A DNA stretch of 64,000 nucleotides. Source: a virus. The notes beneath the pieces are model-generated. The model ran no database searches and had not been told where the DNA came from. It was given only the letters and a program-made list of their open reading frames with translations. The stretch lies in the IMG/VR virus record IMGVR_UViG_3300050821_016647, positions 63,530 to 127,529 of that record; one strand, given 5' to 3'. How positions within the stretch are numbered: position 1 is the first letter of the stretch; each line of letters begins with the position of its first letter. Made by a program: the position numbers and the translations under genes. Below are positions 33,456-63,782 of the stretch, piece after piece.

Positions 33456-33578
33456 CTAGTCCGTCACGATCAACCAGACCACGAAGCAGATCATCACCGC
33501 GCCAAAGACGAGCATCGCAATGGCCCAGCGGGGATTCTCGCGAGCCCACCTTTCTGTCCATTCACGCGGTGGATGCAT
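33456..33578 (-). CDS. 40 aa single-TM protein (RENP + TM); not in ORF track
   Basis: MHPPREWTERWARENPRWAIAMLVFGAVMICFVVWLIVTD. Confidence 0.5.
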   Translation of the reverse strand: MHPPREWTERWARENPRWAIAMLVFGAVMICFVVWLIVTD

Positions 33579-33792
33579 TCGGCGTGCTCTGGTAGATGAG
33601 GTAGCCGCCTAGTGCAATTGCGAGGACGCTGCCGGCGAGAAGTGGAAGATCCGAGCCGATGGGGTTCGACCTTGACCGCCCCGCTTTTCGGTACGCGATG
33701 GCCACGGCTTGGGATTGTTTGTAGCCCTCATGGCGCAGCGTGCGAATGTTCTGAGAAATTACGACATCAGAGCTACCGCGTTGGAGGGGCAT
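33562..33792 (-). CDS. NP-TM family protein fused to a known small phage domain
   Basis: MPLQRGSS...ISQNI..L..EGY.Q.QAVAIAY.KAG, then RSRSNP and TM ending GGYLIYQ. Confidence 0.75.
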   Translation of the reverse strand: MPLQRGSSDVVISQNIRTLRHEGYKQSQAVAIAYRKAGRSRSNPIGSDLPLLAGSVLAIALGGYLIYQSTPNASTA

Positions 33793-33793
33793 C

Positions 33794-33885
33794 TACTTCG
33801 ATCTCCCACTGAAATGAATCGCTGCAATGACCATGACCGCGACGACGGCCGCCAGGCCGAGTTTGATGAGTAGGTCGTTGGTCAC
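33794..33885 (-). CDS. ~30 aa single-TM peptide
   Basis: GTGA overlap; MTNDLLIKLGLAAVVAVMVIAAIHFSGRSK. Confidence 0.45.
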
Positions 33886-34169
33886 GGCTTCGGATCTCGA
33901 GGAATCGGTTCTTGCTCGCGCCTCATGCGCGATTCGTAGTTCGCGGCGTCGTATCCAGCGGCCACGTACTGCTCAAGCGTCGGAAGAAGGTAGTCCCCGT
34001 GATCGGGGTGGCACTTCTTCCCGGACTTGCCCATCTGCGGGTGCGTCCATACGCCGTTGATGAGCGCCGATCCGCAACTCGAACACCACGACGTGATCTT
34101 GGTCGTAGCACCCGTGGCTCCGTCGGTCTTTGGCGTGGCCGTCGGATGCTTGCAGCGATCGAGGCTCAC
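33882..34169 (-). CDS. hypothetical protein (Zn-finger)
   Basis: GTG start 34169; WCSSCG...WTHP...CH. Confidence 0.5.
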   Translation of the reverse strand: MSLDRCKHPTATPKTDGATGATTKITSWCSSCGSALINGVWTHPQMGKSGKKCHPDHGDYLLPTLEQYVAAGYDAANYESRMRREQEPIPRDPKP

Positions 34170-34576
34170 TGAAGCGTCGGGCTGACCTGCGGCACGGGCG
34201 TCGACGCTGCGGTCGCTTGGTAGACCGCCTGCGTCGGTGTCGAAGCGGGCTGCTGTCCCGCGGGCGTGGTTTGGTCGGGATTGACCGACATGATACCGAG
34301 CTCGGGCAGACCCGGGCCGGTGCATTGCGGACCCGTACTGAGGTTCTGGTTGACGGTCGCGGCTGCCCAGACGCCCGCGATGATGCTCGAGGCGAGCCCC
34401 GCGGCGGCCGTGATCGCGAATTCCTTGCGATACTCGTCGGATGCGACGGCGCCGATGATGCCGACGAGCATCGCGAGGCTTCCTCCTCCGGCGAGGACCA
34501 TCTGGGGCACGGTCTGCGTCTCGTCGACGTACGTGCACGTGGGCATCACTTGACCGAGACCGCGACGACGAGCCAT
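34166..34576 (-). CDS. 2-TM protein with MARRRGLGQ leader
   Basis: AGGAG RBS; two hydrophobic helices. Confidence 0.7.
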   Translation of the reverse strand: MARRRGLGQVMPTCTYVDETQTVPQMVLAGGGSLAMLVGIIGAVASDEYRKEFAITAAAGLASSIIAGVWAAATVNQNLSTGPQCTGPGLPELGIMSVNPDQTTPAGQQPASTPTQAVYQATAASTPVPQVSPTLQ

Positions 34577-34598
34577 GGTGATTTCTCCTGCGCTTAGG

Positions 34599-34826
34599 TT
34601 AGCGCCTTTTGAGTAAAAAGAGTGCTGTGAGTCCTCCCGCCAAGATTAGCGGAATTCCTGCGAGATAATTTTGCTCTTGATACAAGAGCCCCGCGCCGAG
34701 TCCCACCGCGGCGGCGCTCCCGGCCAACATGAGCTCCTCTTCCTCGCTCTGATGCTGCGAGTAACCGTACGCCGCACCAGCAGCACCGAGTGCGGCAGCA
34801 GGGATGAGCGTGGCGGGGGCCGTCAT
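34599..34826 (-). CDS. Gly/Ala-rich multi-TM protein
   Basis: three short hydrophobic GxxxG-rich segments. Confidence 0.65.
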   Translation of the reverse strand: MTAPATLIPAAALGAAGAAYGYSQHQSEEEELMLAGSAAAVGLGAGLLYQEQNYLAGIPLILAGGLTALFLLKRR

Positions 34827-34830
34827 GGGT

Positions 34831-35181
34831 TCATCCTACCGCGGAGGGCCCGAGCGGGGTAGTGCTGCCGCCAGAGCCTAGTTCGTAGGACTGATCGTTC
34901 GACGCCGTGGGTCCCGGAGGAAGCCACGGAGCGAGCGGGTTCGCCCCACTGAAAACCGAAGGATTGGGGATGGTCGTCGGCGCGTTCGGCGGAGGGGCGT
35001 AGCCCATGACCTCTTTGGTCGCGGCAGCCTGTGCGGCGGCGCTCGTGGCGGTCTGGTACTGCTGGTAGATGAGGTACGCGACCGTGCCCACCGCGACGAC
35101 GCCCAGCGTGATCAAGACCGCGTCCTCGATGGGGGCGGCCTCGGCCATCTGGAGGGCGCCGGTAGGGTTACGGCGGCGCAT
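34831..35181 (-). CDS. NP-TM family membrane protein
   Basis: MRRRNP; TM ends AYLIYQQ. Confidence 0.75.
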   Translation of the reverse strand: MRRRNPTGALQMAEAAPIEDAVLITLGVVAVGTVAYLIYQQYQTATSAAAQAAATKEVMGYAPPPNAPTTIPNPSVFSGANPLAPWLPPGPTASNDQSYELGSGGSTTPLGPSAVG

Positions 35182-35483
35182 TACGCCCCCGGATTGTAGA
35201 TCGCCGCAGGACCGAGTGCGCCCGGCGTCTGGTTTGAGAACACGCCGATGCCGCTCGGGGCAACGTACGAGTACGTAGCGTTACCGCTCGAGTCGACGCC
35301 TGTCTGGAGCTGAGAAGGCTCGGCGTTCGCTTCGGCAGCAGCGGCCTGAGACTTCGTGTAGAGCCAAATTCCAAGCCCACCTACGACTACGCCGATACCG
35401 ATGAGGATGAGACCATCGGTGTAGGTCGTGACGGGGCCGGCGACGGGATTGCGACGTGAGCGACGACGTCTCGGGTTGATCAT
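35181..35483 (-). CDS. NP-TM family membrane protein
   Basis: TAATG-coupled start MINPRRRRSRRNP; TM ends GIWLYTKSQ. Confidence 0.75.
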   Translation of the reverse strand: MINPRRRRSRRNPVAGPVTTYTDGLILIGIGVVVGGLGIWLYTKSQAAAAEANAEPSQLQTGVDSSGNATYSYVAPSGIGVFSNQTPGALGPAAIYNPGA

Positions 35484-35836
35484 TATAGCTGGTTCCACCA
35501 ATTGGCGGCCGACTGAGCTGCGGTGACCGCAGGAGATTGAGCCTGCGTTTGAACCGTCTGATTTGCGTTGTAGATCTGGTCGCTCACGTTTTGAGCTGCC
35601 TGGGACGCAGCGGCGATTTGATTCGCGACGTCGCCCGCCGAACCTGACGCACCCGAGATGACGTCGTTGGTCTCGGCAAGTGTATTTTGCGCCTGACCGA
35701 GCTGGTAAATCGCATAGACGATGGCGCCGAGCAGCGCGGTCCCCATGCCGAGCATTAGGATCGTGTTCGTATTCAATCCGGTGTCCTGCGGATTTGGACG
35801 TAGGTAGTGACGGCGACGCGAAGGATGGCGCCTCAT
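35483..35836 (-). CDS. NP-TM family membrane protein
   Basis: MRRHPSRRRHYLRPNP; TM ends VYAIYQ; Q/A-rich coiled coil. Confidence 0.75.
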   Translation of the reverse strand: MRRHPSRRRHYLRPNPQDTGLNTNTILMLGMGTALLGAIVYAIYQLGQAQNTLAETNDVISGASGSAGDVANQIAAASQAAQNVSDQIYNANQTVQTQAQSPAVTAAQSAANWWNQL

Positions 35837-36081
35837 GACCCCCACCTGTTTCCAACCCAGATGGCCGCGACGAGACCTCCAACACCAACGAGTCCTCCTG
35901 CGATCATCTCTGCATCCCCCGCGTCCGGATCGAGCGCCATGCCGAGTCCGACACCGGCCGCAGTAAGTCCGCCGATCTGGGCAATCTTGCGCGTGTCGCT
36001 CCCGGCGGAAAGGATCGCTGCCCCGATGCCGAGGACGGCACCGAGAGATCCGAGTTCGAGAGGAAAGCCAAGGTTCGCCAT
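35833..36081 (-). CDS. glycine-zipper 3-TM protein
   Basis: three GxxxG-rich helices, no NP motif. Confidence 0.65.
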   Translation of the reverse strand: MANLGFPLELGSLGAVLGIGAAILSAGSDTRKIAQIGGLTAAGVGLGMALDPDAGDAEMIAGGLVGVGGLVAAIWVGNRWGS

Positions 36082-36318
36082 TTAGGTACCTGTGGTCGCC
36101 TGTCCGAACGTACCGGCTTGGTACGCTTGCAGGTCAGCGACTTGCTGCGCGCTCTTGCCTGCGTTGTAGAGAAGGTAGCCGAAGACGCTCGCGGCGACGA
36201 CCCCTCCGACGCCGAGGTAGATCGCCTGCTCGGTCGTAAAAGTCGTGAGCGGGTTTTCGCTCGAGCAGCTGTCGCAGCAGCGCGCTCCGTTTCGTCTCAT
36301 CAAGGCTCGTCGTCGCAT
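36082..36318 (-). CDS. NP-TM family membrane protein with CCDSC motif
   Basis: MRRRALMRRNGARCCDSCSSENP; TM ends GYLLY. Confidence 0.75.
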   Translation of the reverse strand: MRRRALMRRNGARCCDSCSSENPLTTFTTEQAIYLGVGGVVAASVFGYLLYNAGKSAQQVADLQAYQAGTFGQATTGT

Positions 36319-36320
36319 GG

Positions 36321-36734
36321 TCAGCTCCCTTGGGTCCCGGACGGTTGGTTGGCAGGCAGCGGCACGTTCGAGCCACCCGGTCCGAGCTGCGTGCCTTGGT
36401 AGGTCGAGGTCATGGCTGGCGTCGTCTGCTGCGAGCGCCAGATCAGATACCCGACGAGACCGATGACCGCGGCGCCGCCGACGACGATGCAGGTGTTGCG
36501 GAGGTGCTCTTCGTCGGTGGAGGGGTTGCGTTTTCCTGCATCACCGTCTTCGCCCTCTACGTACGACTTTGCGAGTGCGAGCGTTGAGTGATAGGGCCCG
36601 ATGCGACGAAGGTGTTGACCGGTCCCGTAGAGAACGACGTAGCCTTTTGGCCATTTCAGGATCTCATACTCGCGCGAACCGCTTGTTGCGTGCCACACCG
36701 TCACACCATCTTGCTGACGAGTTGACCAGTTCAT
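36321..36734 (-). CDS. NP-TM family protein with N-terminal soluble domain
   Basis: ~65 aa domain, GKRNP, TM ends GYLIWRSQQ. Confidence 0.75.
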   Translation of the reverse strand: MNWSTRQQDGVTVWHATSGSREYEILKWPKGYVVLYGTGQHLRRIGPYHSTLALAKSYVEGEDGDAGKRNPSTDEEHLRNTCIVVGGAAVIGLVGYLIWRSQQTTPAMTSTYQGTQLGPGGSNVPLPANQPSGTQGS

Positions 36735-37006
36735 GCGACCCGCCCTTCGCTCTCGGCGGTAATTCGAATTCGATCGGAGACGCTCGCCTCTGGGTCTTCG
36801 TCGTACTGCTCGACGGCGTAGTCGCCGCCATAGTGCCGAGCTCCGGCACGGCTGTAGATGAGCACGTCGATGTAGACGGGGCTCTTGCCGGACATGCCCA
36901 TCGAGACCGCGAAGCCGGCCGCTTCGTCAGGCGTCCTAAAGATGCGCTCCTGTCCAGAGCCGTCTTCGACGGCGTACTCGACGTCTTTGTGTGCGTGCTT
37001 TGCCAC
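36731..37006 (-). CDS. soluble hypothetical protein inside the membrane-protein operon
   Basis: GTG start; no TM or NP motif. Confidence 0.65.
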   Translation of the reverse strand: MAKHAHKDVEYAVEDGSGQERIFRTPDEAAGFAVSMGMSGKSPVYIDVLIYSRAGARHYGGDYAVEQYDEDPEASVSDRIRITAESEGRVA

Positions 37007-37009
37007 GAC

Positions 37010-37270
37010 TCAGCCTCCCGCGCTGGCTTGGGCCGGTGTGACGGTGCCCGCCTGGATCTGCTGCATGACCCAGGCGTCGTACGCCTCCTGCGTGGCGTTG
37101 CTCGGCGCGGCGGGGGTGCTCGGGCTTGCTGCGGCGGAGCTCACGCTCATCTTCGAGTAGAGCCCGTAGCCGACCAAGCCGAGGACGGCGAGACCGAGGA
37201 AGGCCAAGCCGAGGTCTTCAGAGCCTGTGAGCGGGTTGGGGCGACGAAAACGCTTCAATGAACGACGCAT
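37010..37270 (-). CDS. NP-TM family membrane protein
   Basis: MRRSLKRFRRPNP; TM ends GYGLY. Confidence 0.75.
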   Translation of the reverse strand: MRRSLKRFRRPNPLTGSEDLGLAFLGLAVLGLVGYGLYSKMSVSSAAASPSTPAAPSNATQEAYDAWVMQQIQAGTVTPAQASAGG

Positions 37271-37281
37271 GAGTGGCTCCT

Positions 37282-37725
37282 CTATGTACCTGAAACAAAT
37301 GGCGGGACGGCGTCCTGCGCATCCGCTTGCTGCTGAGGCGTGAGTGAAGCGGCGTTGCCGGTGTTGGCGACGGGCCCCGAGGGCGCCAGCGGGTTCGAGC
37401 CCGTGACCGCTTTGTAGACGAGGTAGCCGGCGAGTCCGATGAAGCCGACGCCGACTGCGACGAGACCGTAGTCGAGTAAATCGGCTGGATTCTCTTTCGA
37501 GAAGTTCCCATCCGCGTCGAGGAGGTCGACGGTGCCGCGCTCGTTCATGTAGTAGACGTCGGAATAGAATCCCTCTTTCTCCATGCGCCGTCGCGCGGAG
37601 GCGAACGCGGCGTCTCGGGTTCGGTACTTGCCGAGAGACTTGTCCGAGTAGTGCCCGCTGGTGAAGAGCATGTACCCGCCGGACCGCGCGTCCGTGATGA
37701 CGTAGTCGTCTTCTTGAGGTTCCAT
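37282..37725 (-). CDS. NP-TM family protein with N-terminal soluble domain
   Basis: ~75 aa domain, SKENP, TM ends GYLVYK. Confidence 0.75.
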   Translation of the reverse strand: MEPQEDDYVITDARSGGYMLFTSGHYSDKSLGKYRTRDAAFASARRRMEKEGFYSDVYYMNERGTVDLLDADGNFSKENPADLLDYGLVAVGVGFIGLAGYLVYKAVTGSNPLAPSGPVANTGNAASLTPQQQADAQDAVPPFVSGT

Positions 37726-37728
37726 GTG

Positions 37729-38325
37729 TCAGCCGCCTGGGGTAGCGAAGTTTCCGCTCGTGTCGACGACGTATTCGAGAGGAAAGGTGAGAAGCTGAGG
37801 TGTTGGGAAGAGAGGCATGCCTGCGTAAGGGGTCACTCGCATCGTCACCGTACCGATTGCTGTAGTTGGACCAACGGTACCTAGAGATACGACGGTTCCT
37901 GTGACTGCCTGCCCATCGGGCCCAGGCATTCCGGGATGGCTCGCGCTAGTGCCGAAAGACCCGCCCTGAACTACTACGTCTACCGAGTCGCCTACGCTCG
38001 GGACTTTCGTGTTGCCTTGATTCCACCAATTGTAACCGGCTGGTAAAGCAGGAAGTGGTGGCGTTGGCATATAGCCAGCGGGTTCTGTGAGCTCGGATGA
38101 TAGCGAGATTGCGCCAGGCGGTGCTGTTCCGGGCGAATTGAAGGTATTCACAAGAGGCACGGGAGTCGCCGCCGACTGCTGCTGTGACTTCCAAATGAAG
38201 TACCCGACGATGCCGACAGCCGCCGCACCCGCGGCGACAATGCCAACGGTTTGAGCGGTCGAAAGACCGGTTGTCGATACCGCGTCTGGATTACGCGCGT
38301 ATCTGCGTGGGCGTCTCAGTTTCAT
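37729..38325 (-). CDS. NP-TM family protein with C-terminal beta-rich domain
   Basis: MKLRRPRRYARNP; TM ends GYFIWKSQQ. Confidence 0.75.
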   Translation of the reverse strand: MKLRRPRRYARNPDAVSTTGLSTAQTVGIVAAGAAAVGIVGYFIWKSQQQSAATPVPLVNTFNSPGTAPPGAISLSSELTEPAGYMPTPPLPALPAGYNWWNQGNTKVPSVGDSVDVVVQGGSFGTSASHPGMPGPDGQAVTGTVVSLGTVGPTTAIGTVTMRVTPYAGMPLFPTPQLLTFPLEYVVDTSGNFATPGG

Positions 38326-38331
38326 TCTGAC

Positions 38332-39066
38332 CTACGGAGTGGTGCCGCTGATGTTGTCGACGCCTGGTATTCCGGCTTGTGTTTGAGGTGTTGTGACTTC
38401 TCCTTGATACCCGGGTTGGAGGCCGCTACCTCCGCCGAGAGGACCACCGAGATTCGGGTCGTAGACGACTCCACCCGTTTGAACTCCGTATGACTGATCG
38501 ACTGATCCGGTCTGCGTTGTTCCCGGCATCGGCGTCTGGACGACGGGCAAGCTCGCGGCCGTCGACGCGCTCTGCTGCGACTTCCAGATGAGGTAGCCCA
38601 CGAACCCGAGCGCGGCGACGCCGGCCGCAGCGATGCCGACCTTTTCGCCGGTCGACAGGGAAGAGAGAGGATTCGATCGGGACATGTTGGTTTCCTTGGC
38701 GCTCTTGGCGCCCGGTTCGTTGAAGATGCCTGAAGACTTCTCGGGGACGTCGTGGTGGCGCTCGTACTCGAGTTGAAGAAGAGGACGAGCTCCGATTTCA
38801 GGAATTTCGTCTACGTTGAGGATGCCATCATCTTCACCGTCGATGAGAACGTCATTTGAGTGAGCTCGAAGAAAGTGCCCTTCGTTGAGAGCTTTGACCA
38901 ACGCTCTATTCGAGACGTCCCACTGACCCGATTTGTTTTGTCGGTCAGTGCGAACGCTCACGACGCCGACTTCACGTCTGTCGTTGACCGTCCATTCTTC
39001 CTCGCCACTCCAGACGTCGAGGGACCAGACCCTGTAGACGACGGTGCACTTGTTGGCGAAGCTCAC
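38332..39066 (-). CDS. NP-TM family protein with N-terminal domain and probable internal start at 38685
   Basis: YRVWSLDVW domain; internal AAGGA RBS 7 nt before MSRSNP; TM ends GYLIWKSQQ. Confidence 0.75.
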   Translation of the reverse strand: MSFANKCTVVYRVWSLDVWSGEEEWTVNDRREVGVVSVRTDRQNKSGQWDVSNRALVKALNEGHFLRAHSNDVLIDGEDDGILNVDEIPEIGARPLLQLEYERHHDVPEKSSGIFNEPGAKSAKETNMSRSNPLSSLSTGEKVGIAAAGVAALGFVGYLIWKSQQSASTAASLPVVQTPMPGTTQTGSVDQSYGVQTGGVVYDPNLGGPLGGGSGLQPGYQGEVTTPQTQAGIPGVDNISGTTP

Positions 39067-39069
39067 GAC

Positions 39070-39396
39070 TCACGCCCCGGCGGTCGGGACGAGTGGAGCT
39101 GCGGCGCCTGGACCGGCTTCGTAGGAGATGGGGAGCCCGTCTGAGGTCGTGGACGCCGCCGGCAGCGCCACGTTCGACCCGCCTGAGCCGAGGATGGTCG
39201 AGGCGTTCGCATTGCCTCCGACCGTGGACCCTCCTCCCGCGGCGGCCGTCGTCTGGGACTGCTGGTAGAGGTAATACCCGATGCCGCCGACGACGGCGAC
39301 GCCCGCTAGCGCGAGGGCGATCTTGGCGCCGTCGGACATGCTGGCTTTCGGGGAGGGACGCGGGTTGGTGTAGAAGCGGCGAGCTCGTTTGGCCAT
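39070..39396 (-). CDS. NP-TM family membrane protein (first gene of the operon)
   Basis: MAKRARRFYTNP; TM ends GYYLYQQSQ. Confidence 0.75.
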   Translation of the reverse strand: MAKRARRFYTNPRPSPKASMSDGAKIALALAGVAVVGGIGYYLYQQSQTTAAAGGGSTVGGNANASTILGSGGSNVALPAASTTSDGLPISYEAGPGAAAPLVPTAGA

Positions 39397-39431: not shown

Positions 39432-39971
39432 CTACCGCGATGCGATAGGTGCCATGTACGGGTGCTTGGACCACCAGGAAAAGGCTCGTTCCATGCGTCG
39501 GCGGGCTTGAGGTTCTCCCGGTTCACAGTGGCCTACCGTGTAGCCGGTGATGCGGTCGGCCGGCGGGCCGTACTGGCACATGCTCCACGAGTCCCGGAGC
39601 GCGCGAAGCATCCCACGGAAGCACGAGACGCGGTCGGTGAGGCCCTTGGCGTAGCTGTCATGCAGCTGTCCAAGGCACCATGCGTGTCCGCCGTCGCCAC
39701 TCGGCTTGATCTGCTGGTCCACGTCGGCGCGAAACTGCCCAGACTCGTAGCTTGCGATGGCCAGCATGACGAGCGCGGTCTGAGCTCGACCCACTTCACC
39801 TGCGAAGAGTGGGACCTCGTCGGGGTCATTCACCACGGCGGTGAGATCTACCGCGATGCTCTCGTAGCGTGCTTCTGTCTCGGCTCGAGGCGTCCGGGTG
39901 TAGTCGTGGACCGAGGGCGGCGCCCAGAACGTCATGGCGGCGAGCAGGTAAGCGGCGAGTCCGTGAAGCAT
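39432..39971 (-). CDS. lysozyme-fold / lytic transglycosylase-like secreted protein
   Basis: N-terminal hydrophobic signal; IASYESG (catalytic E-S), GDGG.AWCLGQL. Confidence 0.55.
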   Translation of the reverse strand: MLHGLAAYLLAAMTFWAPPSVHDYTRTPRAETEARYESIAVDLTAVVNDPDEVPLFAGEVGRAQTALVMLAIASYESGQFRADVDQQIKPSGDGGHAWCLGQLHDSYAKGLTDRVSCFRGMLRALRDSWSMCQYGPPADRITGYTVGHCEPGEPQARRRMERAFSWWSKHPYMAPIASR

Positions 39972-40552: not shown

Positions 40553-41893
40553 TCACTTAGGCCAGTGGTTCTTGAGCCCGAGTGACGCCCACTCCTGAAC
40601 CTGTTCGAGCGTCACTGGCGGAGACCAGTGATTTCGGATTCCGTCGACGGCCCATAGCTCGGCCTGTCCGAGTGAAACGGCCGGAGGAGGCGCAGGCGGA
40701 GGAGGCGCGGGCGGCGTCGGCAGGGGCGGCGGAGGAATGGGAGGAGTGGGAGCCGGGCCGGTGGTGGGAGGTGCCGGCGGTGCAACGCTGGAGATGGCGC
40801 TGATGAACGCGTCGCCGTTGGGCGAGCCAAGGCCCGTCGCCGGGTCCCATCCTGCCGCTGCGGGGTCGCCGTTCGAACCCTCGGTGATGTCATTGCAGGC
40901 CGTCGCTCGAGCGGTGTAGACGTCCGCTGTGAGGCGTCCGCTGATGGCGCCCTTTGCGACGCCTCGTGCGACCGCAACGAGCGCAGCCGTGAAGGGAGAT
41001 GACGCACTCGTACCGCCGATGACGGTCCACGAGCCGTTGGCGCTCATCTGCCAGCCCGTGTTTGGGTCGGCGTTGGCGGACGTGTCCGGGACGCCGCGGG
41101 CCGAGCCGGGCACGACACCGTTCTGAAACGAGGGCATGGGGACGGTCGGGTCGAATCCGCCGCCTCCGCCTTCGTCGCCCGCGTTTCCGTCGCCCCAGGC
41201 GGCCTCGTCGGAGCGAGCTCCGCTCGAGTCGATGGTCAGATGCGTGCCGCCGACGGCCCAGACGTTTGGATCGGAGCACGGGTAATCCGCCGAGGGAGAC
41301 GAGGTCCCGTCGTCGATGGAGTTGTCGCCCGCCGCCGCGAAGAACGTGACGCCCTTGGCGACTCCGTCGGCGAACGCCTTGGCGAGAGCCGCGCGGTCCG
41401 AAGGGAGCCACTGGTCTGCGGCTGAGCCCCAGGACCAACTGACGACCTGCGCACCGGCTGTGACGAGGTCTTCAGTCACGAGCGCCATGCCGGTGCCGAT
41501 GTTGGGACCGAACGTGATTGTGATGTCGGCTGCCTCGCCCGTAAGGAACCACCACGTGAACGCCATTGTAGGTATGATGTCCAACATGTTTTCCACGTTG
41601 GAATCTTGATCGCTCACCGGGTCGTTGACTGCTCCGTCAACCGTTCGCACTGTCAGCTTTGGCGCGACCATGCCCCACCGAGCGACCGAAGCGTCGATGT
41701 CGGCCTGTACGACGCCACCACCGAGACTGCCGACGCCGAGCTTGACGCTCGGGATGCCGGCAAACTGATTTTGCTTGAATCCATAGGCAGTTAGGATCTG
41801 CGCGGGCGAGAGTGAGCCGGCGGGGAAGCTCGGCGAAGCCGCAGCGAGATGGGTGCCTCGGAGACGGGGGTGCTGTCGGTGGTAGTGATGCAT
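40553..41893 (-). CDS. S53 (sedolisin/kumamolisin) serine peptidase without pro-domain
   Basis: ENMLD (catalytic E, D), AAAGDN, GGTSASSP (catalytic S), Ca site DITEGSNG...GWDPATGLGSP. Confidence 0.9.
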   Translation of the reverse strand: MHHYHRQHPRLRGTHLAAASPSFPAGSLSPAQILTAYGFKQNQFAGIPSVKLGVGSLGGGVVQADIDASVARWGMVAPKLTVRTVDGAVNDPVSDQDSNVENMLDIIPTMAFTWWFLTGEAADITITFGPNIGTGMALVTEDLVTAGAQVVSWSWGSAADQWLPSDRAALAKAFADGVAKGVTFFAAAGDNSIDDGTSSPSADYPCSDPNVWAVGGTHLTIDSSGARSDEAAWGDGNAGDEGGGGGFDPTVPMPSFQNGVVPGSARGVPDTSANADPNTGWQMSANGSWTVIGGTSASSPFTAALVAVARGVAKGAISGRLTADVYTARATACNDITEGSNGDPAAAGWDPATGLGSPNGDAFISAISSVAPPAPPTTGPAPTPPIPPPPLPTPPAPPPPAPPPAVSLGQAELWAVDGIRNHWSPPVTLEQVQEWASLGLKNHWPK

Positions 41894-49431: not shown

Positions 49432-49602
49432 CTACTTGATGAGCTTATCGTACTTCAGCTTCTTCAGCGCGGCACGTAGACGCGTTTTCGAGTGGGCGCT
49501 CTGAAGCGAATCTATCCCTCGTTCGATAGCGCGCTTCACGGTGCGCGGATCGATCTGAGCTTCCAGTGCGATCCGCGCAATCGTAGTTCGGTCGATTTCC
49601 AT
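49432..49602 (-). CDS. small HTH-like protein (56 aa; not in ORF track)
   Basis: AGGAGG RBS; MEIDRTTIARIALEAQIDPRTVKRAIERG. Confidence 0.65.
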   Translation of the reverse strand: MEIDRTTIARIALEAQIDPRTVKRAIERGIDSLQSAHSKTRLRAALKKLKYDKLIK

Positions 49603-51203
49603 CGGTTCCACCTCCTAGACCGGGCGCGACTACTCGTCGAGCGCCTTGATGCGCCGTTGTTGACCACGACCCGATACGCGCCATCCGGAGGCTTCATCGT
49701 CCAGACCACGTTCTCGACCGCCTCGCGCGTGCGTCCGCTGCCAGCGTTCATGTCCACGTCTAGGGTCCCGCCCGTCCATCCTCGCCTGGCACCGAAGAAG
49801 ATTTTGCCGTAGACGCCTCGCGCTCCTCCGCCGTTGGGTTCGATGATGTGCAAGTCGAGGTCGTCGTAGTTGAACCACGACAGCGACACGCGCAGCACCG
49901 CGCCCTCGACCTTGCCTCCCGCCTTCTTCACACGCTCCCGGATGGAGTCGGCGACGTTGCCGCCGTAGGACCACGCGAAGTCGTTACCCCATCGAAAGAG
50001 CTGCTTCGGTTCCGGATGGCACGGCGCCGTGAGCGACATCAGGTTTCCGACGTGCTCGTTCTTGAACAGCAGCTCCAGGCTCGTCGTCTCGGGCAGGATC
50101 TTCGCCACAAAGTCGTCGAGGCCGATTTCCTCGGCGCGCTGCTCGTCGGTGCTCCGGCCTGCCGACGTGGCGGACGCGTGCTGCATGAGCACGTTTCCGA
50201 TGCCACTCTTCATCAGTGGCTTGACGGTTCCGTCGACCCACTTCACGTCGTTTACGGAGATGTCGCCGATGACGGCGAATCGGCGTTCGAGTGCCGGCTC
50301 CAGACCGAGCGCTTCGATCGTCTCCATGGCCTTCTTGACCATGCCAGGTGTGATGAGGGTGGTCGTGCGCTTGTAGTTCTGCGGCGCGACCTTGGTCTCG
50401 AAGCTCTTGACGGCGTGCTCGAGATCCTGACCCTCGGAGAGATCCTGGACGAGGGTGCCGATGACGGTGTTGCGGAATCGTGCCGCGGGGCTGCCTGCGT
50501 TCGCCCACACGAAGATTTTTCGTGCGAGGCCGTATCCCTCCAGAGCAAGAAACGCGCGATGCATCTGCATGAAGTTGAGCACCGCGGCCTTGTGCTCTTC
50601 GCCACGGTAGAGCGCGTTCGACTCGATGAGCGACAAGACGGTGTCGACCGCACTCGGGGAGAGCTCGACGAGCCCACGCTCGAAGACCTGTGCCGTCGTC
50701 CGGTAGTCGCCGCGGACCTGATCGGGTGACGGCACGCGAATGTTCTTCGGGATCTCCCCGGTGTGGAAGTGTTGCCACGTGCGGGCCTGCTGCGTTTCCT
50801 TGTCGAGGGAGCGTGACTGGACCGCGCCGAAGCTCGTCTCTTTTTCGTTCACGCGGTACAAGTCGCAGACGTTCGCGGCGCGCACGACATCGCGCAGACG
50901 AGACGCCACGATGCGGTAAGGCCACGGAGCTATGGCGGCAGCTTCATCCCAAATGGAATGGAGCGTACCGTCATCGCAGACGATGACGACGTTGCCCGCC
51001 CGGCGGATGAACTGCCGGCAGCAGCGGCAGTCGTGCTCCGTGGTCGTCTTGAAGCGTGGATTGGAGCCCTCCGGAAACGAAGCGAGATACGCGTCCCACA
51101 GTGTGTCGCGGTCCAACTCGACGACGAAGACGTCTGACGTCTTGGTCAAGCTCTGGAACGACGCCGCAACCATCTTGGTGAACGCCGGAAATTCGTTCGA
51201 CAT
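49536..51203 (-). pseudogene. conserved large-phage protein with YfaP/DUF2135-like domain, apparently 3'-truncated
   Basis: LWDAYLASFP...EHDCRCCRQFI; RVSLSW...DLDLHIIEP...LDVDMNAG; sequence turns junk-like after YRVVVNN and reads through the next gene's start. Confidence 0.6.
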
Positions 51204-51261: not shown

Positions 51262-51336
51262 GGACCCACCGGACCGATTCGAACGGCCGACCTCCGGCTC
51301 CGCATGCCGACGCTCTACCACTGAGCTACGAGGGTC
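51262..51336 (-). tRNA. trnR: tRNA-Arg-like, anticodon GCG, imperfect acceptor stem, no encoded CCA
   Basis: D arm GCTC-AGTGGTA-GAGC, anticodon arm TCGGC-ATGCGGA-GCCGG, T arm GGCCG-TTCGAAT-CGGTC. Confidence 0.7.
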
Positions 51337-51356: not shown

Positions 51357-51431
51357 GGACCCACCGGACCGATTCGAACGGCCGACCTCCGGCTCCGTAT
51401 GCCGACGCTCTACCGCTGAGCTACGAGGGTC
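51357..51431 (-). tRNA. trnR: tRNA-Arg-like, anticodon ACG, imperfect acceptor stem, no encoded CCA
   Basis: 73 of 75 nt identical to the copy at 51262; anticodon loop ATACGGA. Confidence 0.7.
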
Positions 51432-63501: not shown

Positions 63502-63782
63502 GACCGTACGGCAGACGCCGCCTCCACCACGAACACGTGCCAGACGAAGGGACCCATTTGCACCGTACCGACGAAGCGCACACCGTCCGCGGCGACGTGC
63601 TCAGCCGGATTGCCTGTGCCGACGACGTAGAACTTGACCGGTACCTTTCTTTCGGTTTCGTCGACGCCAGCCCAGACGAACAATTGACCGTTCTGCGCGC
63701 CGACCGAAAGTGCGTGATGGTTGCTCGGCATGAGCACGTCTTGTTCGTCCGTGATGTCGAGCGGGTACTTGTAGATTTTCAC
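63498..63782 (-). CDS. conserved phage protein (DUF7352-like)
   Basis: IYKYPL...LSVG.Q....VWA.VD...VVGTG.P...FVGTVQ...FVWHVF. Confidence 0.75.
   Translation of the reverse strand: MKIYKYPLDITDEQDVLMPSNHHALSVGAQNGQLFVWAGVDETERKVPVKFYVVGTGNPAEHVAADGVRFVGTVQMGPFVWHVFVVEAASAVRS

Follow-up and report, generated by a model that had tools for sequence, protein, structure and literature searches.

An array of paralogous membrane protein genes

The 64,000-nucleotide stretch analyzed here (the window; positions 63,530 to 127,529 of IMG/VR virus record IMGVR_UViG_3300050821_016647) is the second half of the complete genome (127,529 bp, with direct terminal repeats and a CheckV value of 100%) of a large uncultivated bacterial virus, G000, and contains an array of genes for small membrane proteins that share a module of approximately 50 residues with an invariant Asn-Pro dipeptide. 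Positions are those of the window or, where so stated, those of the whole 127,529-bp record (genome positions). The array occupies a block of 17 tightly packed open reading frames (ORFs) on the minus strand, running from 39396 to 33456 in the ORF list and in an independent gene call, and its eleven family genes lie between 33562 and 39396; the gaps between genes in the block range from -13 to +22 nt. Co-transcription of the block is plausible; a scan for internal terminators revealed none that was convincing, and the promoter and terminator scan was uninformative. An alignment of the 22 module cores of the entire genome was used as a hidden Markov model (HMM), profile A1, which was applied to the ORFs in all six frames of the genome. 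The eleven window genes scored 49-70 bits; genome-wide, 21 genes scored 42-70 bits and one divergent plus-strand copy scored 28 bits, and the best true non-member ORF (approximately 20 bits) was a mirror-image relative described below.

All eleven family genes of the block are on the minus strand. Member a (39070..39396, 108 aa, 55.8 bits) begins with its Arg arm, has Asn-Pro at residues 11-12 and continues with the membrane helix and an uncharged tail that includes L-G-S-G-G-S. Member b (38332..39066, 244 aa, 69.9 bits) has a soluble N-terminal domain of approximately 125 aa, Asn-Pro at residues 132-133, the membrane helix and a tail; member c (37729..38325, 198 aa, 59.4 bits) has an N-terminal module and a long tail; and members d (37282..37725, 147 aa, 49.3 bits) and g (36321..36734, 137 aa, 60.9 bits) have N-terminal domains of approximately 75 and 65 aa, respectively, ahead of the module. 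Members e (37010..37270, 86 aa, 57.9 bits), h (36082..36318, 78 aa, 56.3 bits), j (35483..35845, up to 120 aa, 57.7 bits), k (35181..35483, 100 aa, 53.5 bits) and l (34831..35181, 116 aa, 54.0 bits) are followed at the downstream end of the array by member o (33562..33792, 76 aa, 52.2 bits), in which 44 residues that match a small soluble phage family precede the module. The eleven Asn-Pro motifs listed in a first-pass annotation of this DNA were all located in these minus-strand ORFs, from 33562 to 39396. The weaker twelfth member proposed there, a 40-aa ORF (33456..33578, minus strand) with Asn-Pro three residues before a helix, lacks the Gly pattern and matches profile A1 with 11.3 bits (E 0.04), and so its membership is unsupported.

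Architecture and conservation of the module

In the module, an Arg-rich arm leads to Asn-Pro; a short linker of Ser, Thr and acidic residues then connects to a Gly/Ala-rich helix whose end reads G-Y-x-x-[YW]-x3-Q, and past a Gln-rich exit comes an uncharged tail. In the 22 aligned cores, Asn and Pro are invariant and one Gly is nearly so. Conservation was assessed in an alignment of 167 sequences (164 of which cover the motif), namely 21 of the virus's own copies and 146 metagenomic representatives found by a search with profile A1 against 1.84 billion representative proteins at a threshold of E ≤ 1e-3; four of the top 150 metagenomic matches were long multi-stretch false positives. Asn is conserved in 100% and Pro in 97% (with rare Gln, Ala or Thr) of the 164 sequences, three Gly of the helix in 89%, 81% and 88%, the Tyr in 90%, the Tyr-or-Trp position in 98% and the Gln in 65%. 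The six positions preceding Asn-Pro are 30-58% Arg, and the 15 residues preceding it have a mean net charge of +3.2. The linker comprises 6-11 residues of Ser, Thr and Gly and ends with Asp or Glu, acidic residues being found 6-8 positions after Asn-Pro; G-Y follows Asn-Pro after 20-25 residues in 84% of sequences, the full range being 18-36. The tails are 68% Ala/Thr/Pro/Gly/Ser/Gln and 5% charged. The module is at the very N-terminus in approximately 40% of sequences, and more than 40 residues lie ahead of it in approximately 40%.

The first-pass annotation considered only the motif to be conserved and the rest of each protein to be unalignable; on the contrary, the whole module of approximately 50 residues aligns. 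The tails, which it described as unrelated, are indeed of low complexity and uncharged, but a subset of them has the common motif L-G-(P/S)-G-G-S. Its expectation that Asn-Pro is more frequent before these membrane helices than elsewhere is borne out by the finding of Asn-Pro within 28 residues upstream of 22 out of 54 strongly hydrophobic segments of the genome, compared to 5.6% expected by composition (binomial p ~4e-14), whereas Asn-Pro is upstream of 3 out of 34 hydrophobic segments outside the family, which is the chance level. The enrichment is real, but it results from shared descent of one module rather than independent recurrence of a dipeptide. Chance or composition as the source of the pattern is ruled out by the A1 scores together with these segment statistics, and the module can be regarded as a dedicated tag, as had been proposed, and also as a portable one.

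Comparison with known families and signals

The module core corresponds to no named family, in agreement with the initial impression. In none of the 22 members did Pfam-A, PHROGs v4 or NCBIfam 20 contain a family matching the core, the best weak matches shared between members being Chordopox_A13L (three members, E 0.022) and LPXTG_anchor (two members, E 0.015), and a profile search of all PDB sequences returned only weak matches to small photosystem subunit helices of the PsbJ/PsbW type (E ≥ 0.25). A literature search on the clade or the motif found nothing. Signals of the LPXTG or PEP-CTERM type were rejected because the order of the motifs and the side of the membrane differ and the NCBIfam sorting models remained below cut-off (best E 0.015); no candidate for a polytopic processing enzyme was found among the predicted membrane proteins of the genome. 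Membership in the families of RsgI or of reovirus mu1 and aquareovirus VP5, in which Asn-Pro is also conserved, was rejected for lack of any sequence or fold relation, the motif here being located in a short linker of variable length.

The basic segment and the Gly/Ala-rich hydrophobic segment resemble the n-region and h-region of an export signal, Ala-rich stretches are present past the helix, and the ESM Atlas model of one member resembles the N-terminal helices of prepilins, so that the module might serve as a Tat or Sec signal peptide or a prepilin-like leader for the low-complexity tails. This is very improbable. The prepilin likeness amounts to a single long helix only. The leader of type IV prepilins (short and basic, with a Gly and then cleavage before F/M-T-L-x-E where the helix starts) and the lipobox were each found in 0 of the 167 sequences, and the Tat consensus S/T-R-R-x-F-L-K in 0 of 167 by a strict pattern and 4 of 167 by a loose one, the Arg-Arg pair running instead into Asn-Pro and a polar or acidic linker. 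Acidic residues stand between arm and helix, many members have a domain of 60-130 residues ahead of the module, conservation is highest in the helix, which would not be expected of a signal peptide that is discarded, and the sorting-signal models of NCBIfam are unmatched.

Distribution and age of the paralogs

In addition to the eleven family genes of the window block, eleven others are present in the 127.5-kb genome: nine at genome positions 14.4-22.4 kb, and two at 47.9-48.7 kb, approximately 2.6 kb from the best capsid candidate. Two family genes are within the morphogenesis block of G000, and four in the related genome G002 are 6-8 kb from the capsid gene. Profile A1 matched 365 metagenomic clusters (50% identity) at E ≤ 1e-3, nearly all of them with 50-260 aa; the members of ten clusters were looked up, and all were metagenomic, with no NCBI or UniRef record and either no name or "hypothetical protein", save for one generic JGI label of DUF533/YebE. 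Viruses with a homolog of the capsid candidate that is at least 65% identical have numerous family genes (11 in G001, 8 in G002 and 14 in G003), and more distant members of the clade, with 43-52% identity of the capsid homolog, have 0-2 weak matches.

A 91-kb contig reached through one family match (L026) has at least 12 family genes, in an array that is syntenic with the window block and includes homologs of its 124-aa, 179-aa and 136-aa neighbors. The orthologs are one-to-one for members a (45% identity), b (49% over 245 aa), e, j (53%), k (51%), l (44%) and o (56%), with 37-56% identity overall and largely the same order, and the paralogs are therefore old rather than the product of a recent burst. 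Since the L026 ortholog of member j starts with the arm and Asn-Pro, the long start of member j, which includes both, is the real one. With at least 365 clusters the family is large; it is wholly unannotated and serves as a marker of an undescribed, widespread clade of environmental viruses, whose complete genomes measure 55-127 kb; profile A1 is a compact signature by which such viruses and their membrane proteomes can be found in metagenomes.

Domain fusions, mirror forms and a protamine-like relative

Residues 1-44 of member o match phrog_2423, a family of 52 positions (E 1.2e-15), and the N-terminal domain of a 173-aa family protein (genome 18918-19439) matches phrog_3034/8253. These domains stand alone in other phages, which implies that soluble phage domains have here been given the module as an anchor. 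The module also occurs in mirror image: the protein encoded at genome 50224-50757 (minus strand) has a Pro/Thr-rich N-terminal part, a Gly-rich helix, a linker of approximately 15 residues, Asn-Pro and a poly-Arg C-terminus, and its orthologs in loci L005, L006 and L027 retain Asn-Pro directly before poly-Arg; a second protein (genome 22431-23213, minus strand) ends in the same way with helix, linker, Asn-Pro and poly-Arg. The spatial order of membrane, linker, Asn-Pro and Arg arm is thus the same in both orientations of the chain.

Directly upstream of the capsid candidate, a minus-strand frame that is open for 801 codons (genome 45445-47847) encodes a predicted membrane-anchored protamine-like protein. 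From the first plausible start, approximately 350 residues of Ala-Pro/hexa-Arg repeats (32% Arg) are followed by Asn-Pro, a Gly-Gly-Glu linker, a helix ending in G-Y and further hydrophobic segments. The gene is syntenic in essentially every locus of the clade, with orthologs at about 8-9.9 kb in loci L005-L060, and all of the orthologs have 180-420 residues of 30-46% Arg plus Lys before the first helix. Asn-Pro is retained at the junction in the nearer half of these orthologs, and the distant ones have a Gly-Gly-Met-Gly-type stretch instead, from which it follows that the architecture of arm, hinge and helix can function without Asn-Pro. The distribution of this gene shows the architecture to be ancestral and linked to the morphogenesis module. 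It is suggestive that, among eight genomes, those with Asn-Pro in the protamine-like protein are the same as those with any matches to the small-protein family. Many proteins of the structural block end in a family-like helix of the Gly...G-Y type, including LysM proteins anchored at their C-termini; the two LysM-type proteins encoded at genome 38116-39771 and 40253-40972 (minus strand) have a single C-terminal membrane helix each.

The codons CGT and CGC account for 70% of the 113 Arg codons in the protamine-like arm, CGT alone for 43% compared to 15% genome-wide. Two tRNA-Arg genes are present at window positions 51262-51335 and 51357-51430 (minus strand), with anticodons GCG and ACG, and this pair may serve the translation of poly-Arg proteins.

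The location of 20 of the 22 copies outside the morphogenesis block, among small genes, the variation in copy number from 0-2 to 22 between related viruses and the fast evolution of the tails would be expected of proteins that act in the cytoplasmic membrane of the host, by remodeling the envelope, timing lysis or excluding competitors, in which case the array would be the product of an arms race; Gly-rich helices are also typical of small proteins that oligomerize and form channels. Such a non-structural function is nevertheless unlikely. The paralogs, with one-to-one orthologs in conserved order, are not recent bursts, and the same junction is part of the clade-wide protamine-like protein beside the capsid gene. 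With respect to lysis, holins have charged C-termini, which the tails of the family lack, no endolysin is recognized beside the array, and neither the adjacent gene for a 179-aa protein nor the nearby S53 peptidase gene is a recognizable lysin gene; a holin-like role would still be compatible with the sequences.

The capsid candidate and the type of virus

The capsid candidate (genome 44087-45328, 413 aa) has the highest codon score of the genome, more than 400 metagenomic homologs on contigs of up to 200 kb, and 36 relatives in IMG/VR. Its AlphaFold model, computed with a 67-sequence alignment, is beta-rich with a pLDDT of 84 and a pTM of 0.82, and the best look-alikes in PDB are jelly-roll capsid proteins from viruses that contain a membrane, among them PRD1 P3, which is colinear over the full length; the model from the single sequence was unusable (pLDDT 30). 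A Foldseek search of PDB and BFVD returned only papillomavirus L1 and CRESS capsid entries with meaningless TM-scores, and tblastn against 50,697 phage records gave no match. An initial hint of an HK97 capsid fold (ESM Atlas features 0.93, with few shared features) was discarded because fold searches returned no HK97 protein. PHROGs and Pfam were run on approximately 40 of the larger proteins, among them every predicted protein of 400 aa or more; they identified genes for replication and recombination, an integrase, methylases, an AAA+ ATPase and LysM proteins, and found no terminase, portal or HK97 capsid protein; a search for terminases of phrog_2 found none in eight genomes of the clade, several of which are complete. 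The only P-loop proteins of the genome are a ComM-like protein, an AAA+ protein, a Sak4-like protein, a helicase and a primase, and no match to Varidnaviria-type packaging ATPases, FtsK/HerA or A32 (PF01580, PF04665), was found in the complete genome, though divergent forms could escape detection. From these results, G000 is plausibly a tailless, lipid-containing jelly-roll virus, and together with its relatives G001-G007, among which complete genomes with terminal repeats also occur, it possibly represents an undescribed lineage of large tailless viruses.

A tyrosine integrase is encoded at genome 13202-14164 (minus strand; phrog_1, E 7e-21), and since the genome also has terminal repeats, the virus may be temperate. 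Assignment of a host was attempted from fragments of the capsid gene on binned contigs, but these were short and assigned to Acidimicrobiales (two), Binatia and Polyangiaceae, which is too weak to use.

Proposed function of the module

The best explanation of these observations, with a probability of about 0.5, is that the module anchors proteins in a virus-specific membrane, that its polycationic arm tethers DNA or else the capsid or acidic lipid, and that Asn-Pro is a fixed hinge. By the positive-inside rule, the Arg arm would be on the cytoplasmic face with the tail across the membrane; the partner of the arm would be a polyanion, most plausibly DNA of the virus and otherwise acidic lipid or the capsid; where the arm meets the linker next to the membrane, Asn-Pro would provide a fixed turn or hinge; paralogs would be packed side by side through their Gly-rich helices; and the variable N-terminal domains and tails would be cargo brought to the virus-modified membrane, which would probably end as the lipid layer of a tailless virion with a jelly-roll capsid. 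The topology, the binding partner of the arm, the location in the virion and the role of Asn-Pro are all predicted from sequence. The prediction is based on the homology and conservation of the module, the charge of the arm and the composition of the tail, the old syntenic paralogs, the fusions to soluble domains, the two mirror-image proteins, the protamine-like protein adjacent to the capsid gene, the family genes near morphogenesis and capsid genes, the Gly...G-Y helices of structural-block proteins, the jelly-roll-like capsid model, the lack of terminase matches in the eight genomes searched, and the precedent of PM2, in which a phage-specific membrane patch interacts with DNA during assembly (PMC6356626). 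The initial suggestion of a DNA-binding anchor at a viral membrane has thereby gained indirect support, in that the same junction of arm, Asn-Pro and helix is found in a clade-wide protein beside the capsid candidate. If the arms bind the genome, condensation of DNA would be coupled to a lipid membrane, which bears on how large tailless viruses enclose their DNA.

Some considerations weigh against membrane anchoring with a hinged arm. Most copies of the family are in two arrays among small, non-structural-looking genes outside the morphogenesis block. In assembly of the PRD1 type, the cytoplasmic face of the membrane meets the capsid and not the DNA (PMC6356626), so that binding of DNA by the arms requires a PM2-like or open-sheet route. 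Finally, a plain hinge needs no Asn that is conserved in 100% of sequences, and the distant orthologs of the protamine-like protein make do with their Gly-rich stretch. A hinge alone does not account for such strict invariance of Asn, and this keeps alive the alternative that Asn-Pro is a maturation site, cut by attack of the Asn side chain or by a protease. The cut would free the arm or the N-terminal domain from its anchor, with DNA condensation or activation of a membrane-active fragment as possible purposes.

Cleavage at Asn-Pro would account for the conservation of these two residues above any other position; the motif is at the boundary of the arm in both orientations of the chain, so that a cut would free the arm either way, and acidic residues follow at the distance described above. 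There are also precedents, self-cleavage at Asn-Pro having been proven for RsgI, a single-pass anti-sigma factor (PMC10328401), and for reovirus mu1 and aquareovirus VP5 (PMC9148132). However, the known Asn-Pro cuts are made inside folded domains, whereas here the dipeptide is in a short, probably flexible juxtamembrane segment, at a variable distance from the helix (18-36 residues), and neither the RsgI domain nor any chain of solved structure is similar; the distant orthologs of the protamine-like protein lack Asn-Pro; and no protease co-varies with the family. On balance, cleavage is considered doubtful.

The protease that the first-pass annotation had linked to the family is an S53 serine-carboxyl peptidase (40553..41893, minus strand), which is kumamolisin-like (E 5e-45 to kumamolisin 1t1e), lacks a pro-domain and has a C-terminal extension consisting of a long Pro-rich linker and a domain of approximately 45 residues. 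The link does not hold: no S53 homolog is present in G001 or G002 despite their 11 and 8 family genes, the gene is missing from the syntenic slot of L026, and the only relative in IMG/VR, in the distant clade member L065 (76% identity), has no family gene within 8 kb. Because array and protease are dissociated in both directions, the S53 peptidase is an accessory gene and is ruled out on phyletic grounds as the cognate maturation enzyme. Its 76% identity to the L065 copy, compared to 44% for the capsid protein, suggests exchange between members of the clade.

A further-reaching proposal sees in the junction of Arg arm and Asn-Pro a new viral signal for maturation or sorting: its carriers would collect at a membrane patch specific to the virus, and the Asn-Pro bond would be cut by self-cleavage or by a still unrecognized enzyme, whereupon protamine-like peptides would condense a genome of 55-127 kb inside a tailless, membrane-containing capsid that has no recognizable packaging motor. 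This combination of events is speculative and decidedly unlikely. If Asn-Pro is cut, a viral juxtamembrane case would be added to the few known Asn-Pro self-cleavage systems.

Other genes in and beside the block

Five further minus-strand ORFs inside the block fall outside the family. Of these, 36731..37006 encodes a soluble 91-aa protein with neither a membrane helix nor an A1 match, 35833..36081 an 82-aa Gly-rich protein with two membrane helices and no A1 match, and 34599..34826 a 75-aa Gly/Ala-rich membrane protein. The 136-aa protein encoded at 34166..34576, with a basic N-terminus, two membrane helices and no Asn-Pro, is a conserved neighbor of the array (57% identical to its L026 homolog), and the fifth ORF is located at 33793-33885. 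Directly upstream of the array, 39432..39971 (minus strand) encodes a 179-aa protein with a hydrophobic N-terminus; a 64% identical homolog is encoded beside the L026 array, on the opposite strand there, and the 30 homologs, all restricted to the clade, are without a Pfam domain. A possible lytic transglycosylase function for this protein, suggested by eye, was not supported by Pfam, PHROGs, PDB or the annotation of homologs. Comparison of the region with 50,697 phage records by blastn gave no match. Adjoining the tRNA-Arg pair, 49536-51203 (minus strand) encodes a 555-aa protein of phrog_1735 (E 7e-164), which has 42-47% identity to proteins in 553 diverse phage records, including Vi1-like phages, roseophage DSS3, Pseudomonas phage Zuri and a Microcoleus phage.

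Comparison with known systems

The membrane proteins of PRD1 and P3 and P6 of PM2 are, like the family described here, small single-pass viral proteins with several per genome, and the membrane proteins of internal-membrane phages have been proposed to organize a membrane patch that contacts the capsid and, in PM2, the DNA (PMC6356626). PRD1 and PM2 differ in having genomes of 10-15 kb with few, unrelated membrane proteins, as opposed to 127 kb with a 22-copy family, an invariant Asn-Pro and Arg arms; no sequence relation to them was found, and the present proteins are putative virion components. In RsgI and mu1/VP5, too, Asn-Pro is conserved and lies near a membrane helix or membrane-active segment, and its cleavage is functionally essential in both (PMC10328401; PMC9148132), but their Asn-Pro is part of a folded domain (at a beta1-beta2 turn or where a helix ends), and that of RsgI is on the periplasmic side.

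The LPXTG and PEP-CTERM systems combine, as the module does, a signature motif, a membrane helix and a basic cluster in many otherwise unrelated proteins of one genome. Their signals are C-terminal, with the signature outside and a dedicated sortase or exosortase, whereas the module is mostly N-terminal or internal, its signature is on the basic (cytoplasmic) side, and no candidate enzyme co-occurs with it. The Arg-rich motifs at the N-termini of capsid proteins and the core proteins of adenoviruses are poly-Arg segments on proteins of structural modules, most simply read as nucleic-acid binders. Like these and protamine-like core proteins, the arms described here are poly-Arg stretches, some short and some very long, on proteins of structural modules; they differ in their covalent connection to a membrane helix by way of a fixed Asn-Pro, in both orientations of the chain and in more than 20 paralogs.

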